A DNA stretch of 64,000 nt from Octopus vulgaris (lineage: Eukaryota). This document shows, piece after piece, positions 4,972 through 44,916 of the stretch. The notes under the pieces were generated by a model. It worked only from the letters and a program-made list of their open reading frames with translations. It searched no databases and was not told the origin of the DNA. The stretch lies in NCBI GenBank assembly GCA_951406725.2, contig OX597814.1, positions 67,642,001 to 67,706,000 of the forward strand, read 5' to 3'. The position numbers and the translations under genes were made by a program. Within the stretch, counting starts at the first letter, position 1, and each line of letters starts with the position of its first letter.

Positions 4972-44916
<39,945 letters not shown>

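Follow-up and report, generated by a model that had tools for sequence, protein, structure and literature searches.

How does an RH-domain protein reach its membrane when one of its isoforms begins with what looks like a lipid anchor? Members of this family reach late endosomes via Rab7, through an interface that the accessible text of PMC7382272 describes as a target for drugs that would increase autophagy. The question is raised by a 64,000-nt stretch of the Octopus vulgaris genome (contig OX597814.1, positions 67,642,001 to 67,706,000, forward strand; hereafter the window), in which 14 exons between 4972 and 44916 splice to a 476-aa protein identical to XP_036365486.1 (P0004) of Octopus sinensis, named DEF8 homolog B-like isoform X2 in RefSeq. 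An earlier note on this DNA had proposed that a 30-nt first coding exon beginning MGCASS provides a dual-acylation anchor, so that the protein may be held on membranes constitutively rather than recruited only through Rab7. As far as the exon is concerned the proposal was borne out: 4972-5001 is genuine, an alternative first coding exon in the gene of a divergent DEF8 paralogue; it is followed by a GTAAGT donor and the spliced product is RefSeq X2.

The gene is read from the plus strand throughout. Exon 1 (4972..5001) encodes residues 1-10, with the Gly2/Ser6 motif and Cys3 as a putative S-acylation site. Each of the three C1 domains is then split between two exons: C1a (residues 21-70) between exon 2 (6567..6693, aa 11-53) and exon 3 (8783..8841), C1b (92-142) between exon 4 (20511..20667), which ends at a GC donor, and exon 5 (23107..23171), and C1c (157-206), the domain matched by Pfam C1_1, between exon 6 (24896..25022) and exon 7 (25787..25851). 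The RH region starts in exon 8 (28145..28235), with the match to the Rubicon structure 6WCW running from aa 225, and continues through exon 9 (32030..32154), exon 10 (38821..38934), the stalk in exon 11 (40130..40207), exon 12 (42318..42488) and the zinc clusters of exon 13 (43646..43800) to exon 14 (44850..44916), which carries the stop codon and has AATAAA at 44927 and ATTAAA at 45055 on its 3' side. The GT-AG rule holds for 12 of the 13 introns, the exception being intron 4 (GC-AG). Pfam searches with seven single exon-sized pieces returned nothing meaningful, the full protein being required.

Several features of the introns and of the DNA around the gene deserve mention in their own right. 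At the intron 4 donor, GCAAGC at 20668-20669, an insertion of 34 aa is present in P0007, the RefSeq model of O. bimaculoides, but not in the UniRef model P0008; it is possibly a modelling artefact. A 67-nt copy, 97% identical, of the exon 10 acceptor and 5' part (38813-38879) lies some 720 bases further on, within intron 10 (39533-39599), where it may act as a decoy or an alternative exon. The candidate exon 26868/26890-26991 was rejected as part of the gene; it sits in an inverted-repeat element. Long inverted-repeat, MITE-like elements with arms 86-93% identical occur at 2922-3199, 13795-14222 and 26432-27308, and intron 9 contains a 592-nt direct duplication of 99% identity (35767-36358 and 37907-38497). 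On the minus strand of intron 3, an RVT_1 reverse transcriptase and a GIY-YIG endonuclease occupy separate frames at 15476-17799, an arrangement that we take to be that of a Penelope-like retroelement. Other reverse-transcriptase fragments (Pfam RVT_1) lie at 11971-12426 and 46467-46790, both on the minus strand, and no Pfam match was obtained, where tested, for frames of similar appearance at 32891-34223 and 57284-57652.

To which family does the protein belong? Domain content and zinc ligands place it in the RH-domain family: Pfam RH_dom matches residues 247-471 with 96.4 bits against a cut-off of 28.1 (E 2.8e-27), and the order is anchor, C1a, C1b, C1c and RH, the three C1 domains being complete by His/Cys spacing. 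No RUN, PH or PI3K-binding domain was found by Pfam. Like the lysosome-trafficking protein DEF8 (Differentially expressed in FDCP 8), it has a C1 domain immediately preceding the RH domain at its C-terminus, its best named matches outside the paralogue are DEF8s at roughly 27-30% identity, and its top Atlas clusters, which are a lead only, are C1+RH/DEF8 at 0.85-0.87. Nevertheless, it is a divergent paralogue and not the canonical DEF8 orthologue of the species. The canonical DEF8 of Octopus is another protein (P0015/P0163), identical to the paralogue at 64 of 218 RH positions. Moreover, canonical DEF8 has one C1 domain in all 33 named records, by a crude pattern count, versus three here, and the acidic, helical N-terminal region of DEF8 is absent from the paralogue, which differs further in its MGxxxS start, its eroded Rab7 contacts and its long branch. 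The gene for canonical DEF8 (P0015) and that for the paralogue (P0003) are both listed on an O. sinensis contig of 213,406,131 bases, which suggests that they share a chromosome.

Homologue searches, one of them with a single internal exon that matched Octopus proteins, and a full HMMER search recovered the subfamily as five clusters only (P0001, P0002, P0003, P0009 and P0010), namely two from Octopus, a fragment of 128 aa with 96% identity to exon 12, and two distant clusters at 34-36% identity. One clade (support 100/100) unites both Octopus rows with the two distant full-length rows, and the best trees attach it to the Octopus DEF8 branch (93/91, and 86 in a second tree); alternative placements were not rejected (p-AU 0.49 and 0.51), and a cephalopod duplication as the origin of the paralogue is a guess. 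Intoshia was left out of the first tree, and Intoshia, Pleurobrachia, Helobdella and both O. bimaculoides rows out of the second. The distant proteins P0010 and P0160 keep two C1 domains, the first of the three being reduced to a CxxC remnant, and have long C-terminal tails that the octopus protein lacks.

Is the first exon what it seems? It is 30 nt long, encodes ten residues, ends in phase 0 and abuts the consensus donor GTAAGT (5002-5007, plus strand). An in-frame TGA at 4951-4953, on the same strand, lies seven codons 5' of the ATG at 4972, which is therefore the first Met, provided that the exon begins upstream of that stop. The start context is favourable, A standing at -3 and G at +4, and RefSeq models of two Octopus species use this ATG, giving a Met-Gly initiator on a transcript whose 5' end is predicted. 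A scan of positions 1-6566 found six open phase-0 mini-exons running from an ATG to a donor; 4972-5001 has the best combination of donor and start context among these upstream candidates and is the only one with GTAAGT. The AG preceding the ATG follows a purine-rich stretch, whereas the acceptors of internal exons are mostly pyrimidine-rich, from which we infer that splicing from an upstream coding exon straight into ATG 4972 is unlikely. Further upstream, an E-box and a TATA-like box (4890..4909, plus strand) might form a core promoter, 60-80 nt 5' of the start codon. The E-box, CACGTG at 4890-4895, is one of seven in the window, lies 82 bases before the ATG and presumably resembles the core of the MiT/TFE (CLEAR) sites of lysosomal genes; the TATA-like box at 4902 is weak, with 484 such boxes in the window.

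Only one of the four predicted O. sinensis isoforms, X2, contains the exon. X1 starts instead at another first coding exon (6285..6335, plus strand), which encodes no Gly2 and has the non-consensus donor GTACTG, while X3 starts at Met45 and X4 at Met138; the O. vulgaris model P0001, which lacks the exon, also starts at Met45. The earlier note had held that its idea would fail if exon 2 were spliced to a different upstream coding exon, and both arrangements occur among the predicted isoforms: X2 joins 5001 to 6567, and X1 uses 6285-6335 in its place. Constitutive anchoring can thus apply to the X2 isoform only, X1, X3 and X4 being without the exon. One may go further and suppose that 4972-5001 is a gene-model choice or a rarely used exon, the main protein starting elsewhere and remaining unacylated. 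The models without the exon favour this explanation, as does a loose DNA pattern for the anchor motif, seen twice in the window versus 1.03 expected and at least twice in 23 of 100 shuffles, so that the bare motif is not above chance and its weight comes from its position at an annotated start. Conservation between Octopus species adds little: O. sinensis and O. bimaculoides differ at 22 of 476 positions (95% identical), and nine unchanged N-terminal residues are then expected by chance (P=0.65). On the other side stand the donor and start context, the use of the exon in both O. bimaculoides models fetched (P0007 and P0008, with the same first nine residues), and the uneven spread of changes between the two species, none of residues 1-9 and five of residues 10-20 differing (Fisher p=0.03, post hoc). 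In addition, a relative only 34% identical has an independent MGxxxS start at a matching distance. With this evidence in hand, we regard a coincidence or a minor isoform as very improbable.

That relative (P0010/P0158) begins M-G-x-x-x-S, with Gly at position 3, and has its first CxxC at residue 29, versus 34 in the octopus protein, its first C1 domain being degenerate. In the second distant cluster (P0009/P0160) an MG start is lacking. P0160 has a leader rich in Phe, with a final Gln that lies 22 residues before the matching CxxC, to be compared with the 23 residues from the start of exon 2 to the CxxC in the octopus protein, and its N-terminus looks like a retained phase-0 intron. Gly2 and Ser6 are therefore backed by one of the two distant clusters and Cys3 by neither and, as only five clusters of the subfamily were recovered, conservation of the anchor rests on a single distant cluster. 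Among the 33 named canonical DEF8 records, which span 13 genera and include many isoforms, MGxxxS/T occurs in none and an MG start in two; one record fits a looser PROSITE-type pattern, and in a congener the corresponding start lies inside the protein.

The octopus N-terminus fits MGXXXS/T, with Gly2 and Ser6 in place and Cys3 beside Gly2, and it likewise fits the PROSITE-type myristoylation pattern. As stated in the accessible part of PMC4736023, MGXXXS/T is the usual N-myristoylation consensus and Ser6 is neither sufficient nor required. Myristoylation of Gly2 is therefore likely on motif grounds, and the earlier identification of Gly2 with Ser6 as the consensus is strengthened by the recurrence of both in the 34%-identical relative. 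The second half of the dual-acylation proposal fared less well. Of the MGCxxS motif whose conservation had been put forward as a check, the whole recurs in O. bimaculoides and Gly2/Ser6 in P0010/P0158, but Cys3 is replaced by Gly there and is present only in two Octopus proteins that are 95% identical; its palmitoylation is plausible. This leaves room for an alternative in which Gly2 alone is acylated, Cys3 is incidental, and the C1 domains provide the second membrane signal through basic lipids or protein partners. The Gly at position 3 of the relative is consistent with it, and the C1 tandem begins only about ten residues on. Against this, a Cys next to myristoyl-Gly2 is an established site of S-acylation, LAMTOR1/Pdro being acylated at Cys3/4 (available text of PMC2882324) and GNAI proteins at Cys3 (available text of PMC10470219), and the octopus protein has no polybasic patch to stand in for a second acyl group, with two basic and two acidic residues between positions 2 and 20. 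We consider myristoylation as the sole acylation unlikely.

The likeness to LAMTOR1 had also been raised in the earlier note, as that of a lysosomal anchor. What the octopus protein shares with LAMTOR1/Pdro and G-alpha-i is Gly2 and the adjacent Cys3, here a single Cys on an unrelated body, so that the anchor is analogous at most and implies no kinship. The lysosomal part of the comparison does not carry over: LAMTOR1 also has two dileucine signals, according to the same part of PMC2882324, and no [DE]xxxL[LI] match occurs anywhere in the 476 aa. Since both a dileucine and a polybasic patch are missing, a lysosomal address is not implied by the motif. A parallel in gene organisation is the sperm hexokinase isoform HK1S, in which, as reported in the accessible text of PMC4736023, one or more alternative first exons add a dual-acyl anchor and change localisation. 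There too an alternative first exon supplies the acyl anchor, but the motif and the protein are others, and what is experimental for HK1S is predicted for the octopus paralogue. An acylated isoform of RasGRP2, considered as a further precedent, was dropped, the accessible part of PMC7037602 making no mention of it.

Might the C1 domains target the protein by binding diacylglycerol (DAG)? C1 domains of the typical DAG- and phorbol-binding kind carry Pro11, Gly23 and Gln27 of the PKC C1 consensus. In an alignment with PKC-beta, positions 11, 23 and 27 are occupied by Asn, Gly and Tyr in C1a and by Trp, Ile and Pro in C1c, and C1b has neither Pro nor Gln in the two loops. All three domains thus appear atypical and probably do not bind DAG. 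In the parts of PMC5067486 and PMC7037602 available to us, atypical C1 domains are described as often failing to bind DAG, and the latter gives RasGRP2 as an example of binding to phosphoinositides, a property that would suit the alternative in which the C1 domains act as the second signal.

What remains of the Rab7-binding surface in the RH domain? The accessible text of PMC7382272 lists the Rab7 contacts of Rubicon and reports that colocalisation with Rab7 falls in the mutants T825D, L883D, K887D and F889D and in one altered at four arginines. Fifteen of these contacts were mapped through the 6WCW alignment, with gap-free anchoring on conserved cysteines; the list is that of Rubicon and not of DEF8, and E897, ambiguous beside an insertion, was left off it. 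P0011, whose last zinc cluster is mis-modelled, was left out of the interface score and had scored 1/15 in an earlier count. The octopus protein is identical at one of the 15 contacts and similar at six, and its two distant relatives are identical at one and none, versus 4-8 identical and 8-12 similar in seven canonical DEF8s. BLOSUM62 scores summed over the contacts are 4, -13 and -15 for the octopus protein and the two relatives and 21-41 for the canonical DEF8s.

All four paralogue rows have Asp or Glu at both 821 and 825 and have lost R931, R934 and R938. In the octopus protein, E331, N332 and E335 of exon 11 stand at Rubicon N821, M822 and T825, T404, K408, Y410 and S411 of exon 13 at L883, K887, F889 and I890, and N468, S471 and D475 in the tail of exon 14 at R931, R934 and R938. 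The paralogue rows also carry an insertion after the cysteine that precedes Q895, beside Q895/E897, which in the octopus protein amounts to about ten residues after C416. Finally, the Pacer triad for phospho-Rab7 (PMC11090050, accessible part) maps by our own reading of the alignment to E331/K441/T448, and is thus absent. Two observations temper the acidic substitutions, the canonical Intoshia DEF8 having Glu at T825 as well, and the HMMER pairwise alignment offering a friendlier register around 821-825, with a gap at T825 and N332 opposite N821.

It might be argued that Rab7-GTP is still bound by the dual-acylated protein, which would act as DEF8 does on late endosomes and lysosomes, the lipid adding avidity or constitutive residence. 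The RH domain is complete and its zinc ligands are kept, with K887 retained and F889, I900 and R827 replaced conservatively by Tyr, Val and Lys. Its best structure match is Rubicon RH-Rab7 (6WCW), with E 1.7e-07 by sequence and 1.7e-05 by Foldseek; the AlphaFold model behind the latter is poor (mean pLDDT 53.7, residues 1-92 below 50) and served as a fold check only, and the Foldseek matches that follow 6WCW are mostly C1 domains. Erosion of the octopus interface is within its background, being no greater than that of conservation-matched RH columns (p=0.31; the relatives give p=0.02 and 0.055), and a strict contact count gives 1/4 versus 26/85 (Fisher p=0.65). Yet the interface is not preferentially conserved, as it should be were Rab7 binding still selected, and a loss of binding is a possibility: of the Cys/His columns conserved in canonical DEF8s, 20 of 22 are kept in the octopus protein (19-20 across the paralogue rows), which points to selection on the fold and apparently not on the interface. 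The single identical contact out of 15, the acidic pair, the lost arginines of the C-terminal helix, the insertion and the unmatched Pacer triad all speak against continued binding. An anchor acting together with Rab7 therefore seems to us rather unlikely. As for the earlier suggestion that lipid supplements Rab7 recruitment, in a DEF8 paralogue with so few of the contacts kept, it is no less likely that a lipid takes the place of Rab7. The octopus protein would thus share the RH domain with Rubicon, PLEKHM1 and Pacer and differ from them in that these are recruited by Rab7 (PMC7382272, accessible part), whereas it keeps 1/15 contacts and adds a predicted acyl anchor.

The reading that we find best, with moderate confidence, is that a DEF8 paralogue carries a lipid anchor in one of its isoforms and has weakened Rab7 binding. 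Once X2 is made, Met1 would very probably be removed and Gly2 acylated by N-myristoyltransferase during translation. The myristoylated protein would sample membranes until a DHHC enzyme palmitoylates Cys3, a fairly probable step that would give a stable and reversible second anchor. By means of the anchor, the three atypical C1 domains and the RH domain would stay at a membrane with no need of Rab7-GTP, be it the plasma membrane and Golgi or the late endosome. On balance, Rab7 binding by the octopus RH domain may be weakened or lost, with lipid largely replacing Rab7 as the targeting device, and the choice of first exon would switch between an anchored X2 and unanchored X1, X3 and X4. More tentatively, and with less than even confidence, we can imagine that a lineage-restricted DEF8 duplicate, probably cephalopod, traded recruitment by Rab7 for an exon-switchable acyl anchor, its remodelled RH surface and three atypical C1 domains engaging another partner. 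Such a partner may be another GTPase, or PLEKHM1/DEF8 with the paralogue as a competitor; DEF8 stabilises the PLEKHM1-RAB7A complex, as reported in the accessible part of PMC10564863.

How much of this is new? RefSeq already lists the protein under a name assigned automatically, and the anchor motif is a textbook one. Our literature search, which covered mostly non-subscription papers, found neither an acylated RH-domain protein nor a description of the octopus paralogue, and the accessible part of PMC10564863 contains no mention of myristoyl or palmitoyl groups. The narrow range, Octopus and two distant relatives, limits the general interest for now. The annotation can be corrected in any case, the gene labelled DEF8-like being a paralogue with a different architecture. 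If recruitment by Rab7 was indeed traded for a lipid anchor, the octopus protein would be, as far as our literature search could find, the first RH-family member to be lipid-anchored and independent of Rab7. A natural RH protein that combines a lipid anchor with a worn Rab7 face would show which roles of the RH domain stand apart from Rab7 binding, and it would show how the targeting of a protein can be rewired by one ten-codon exon.
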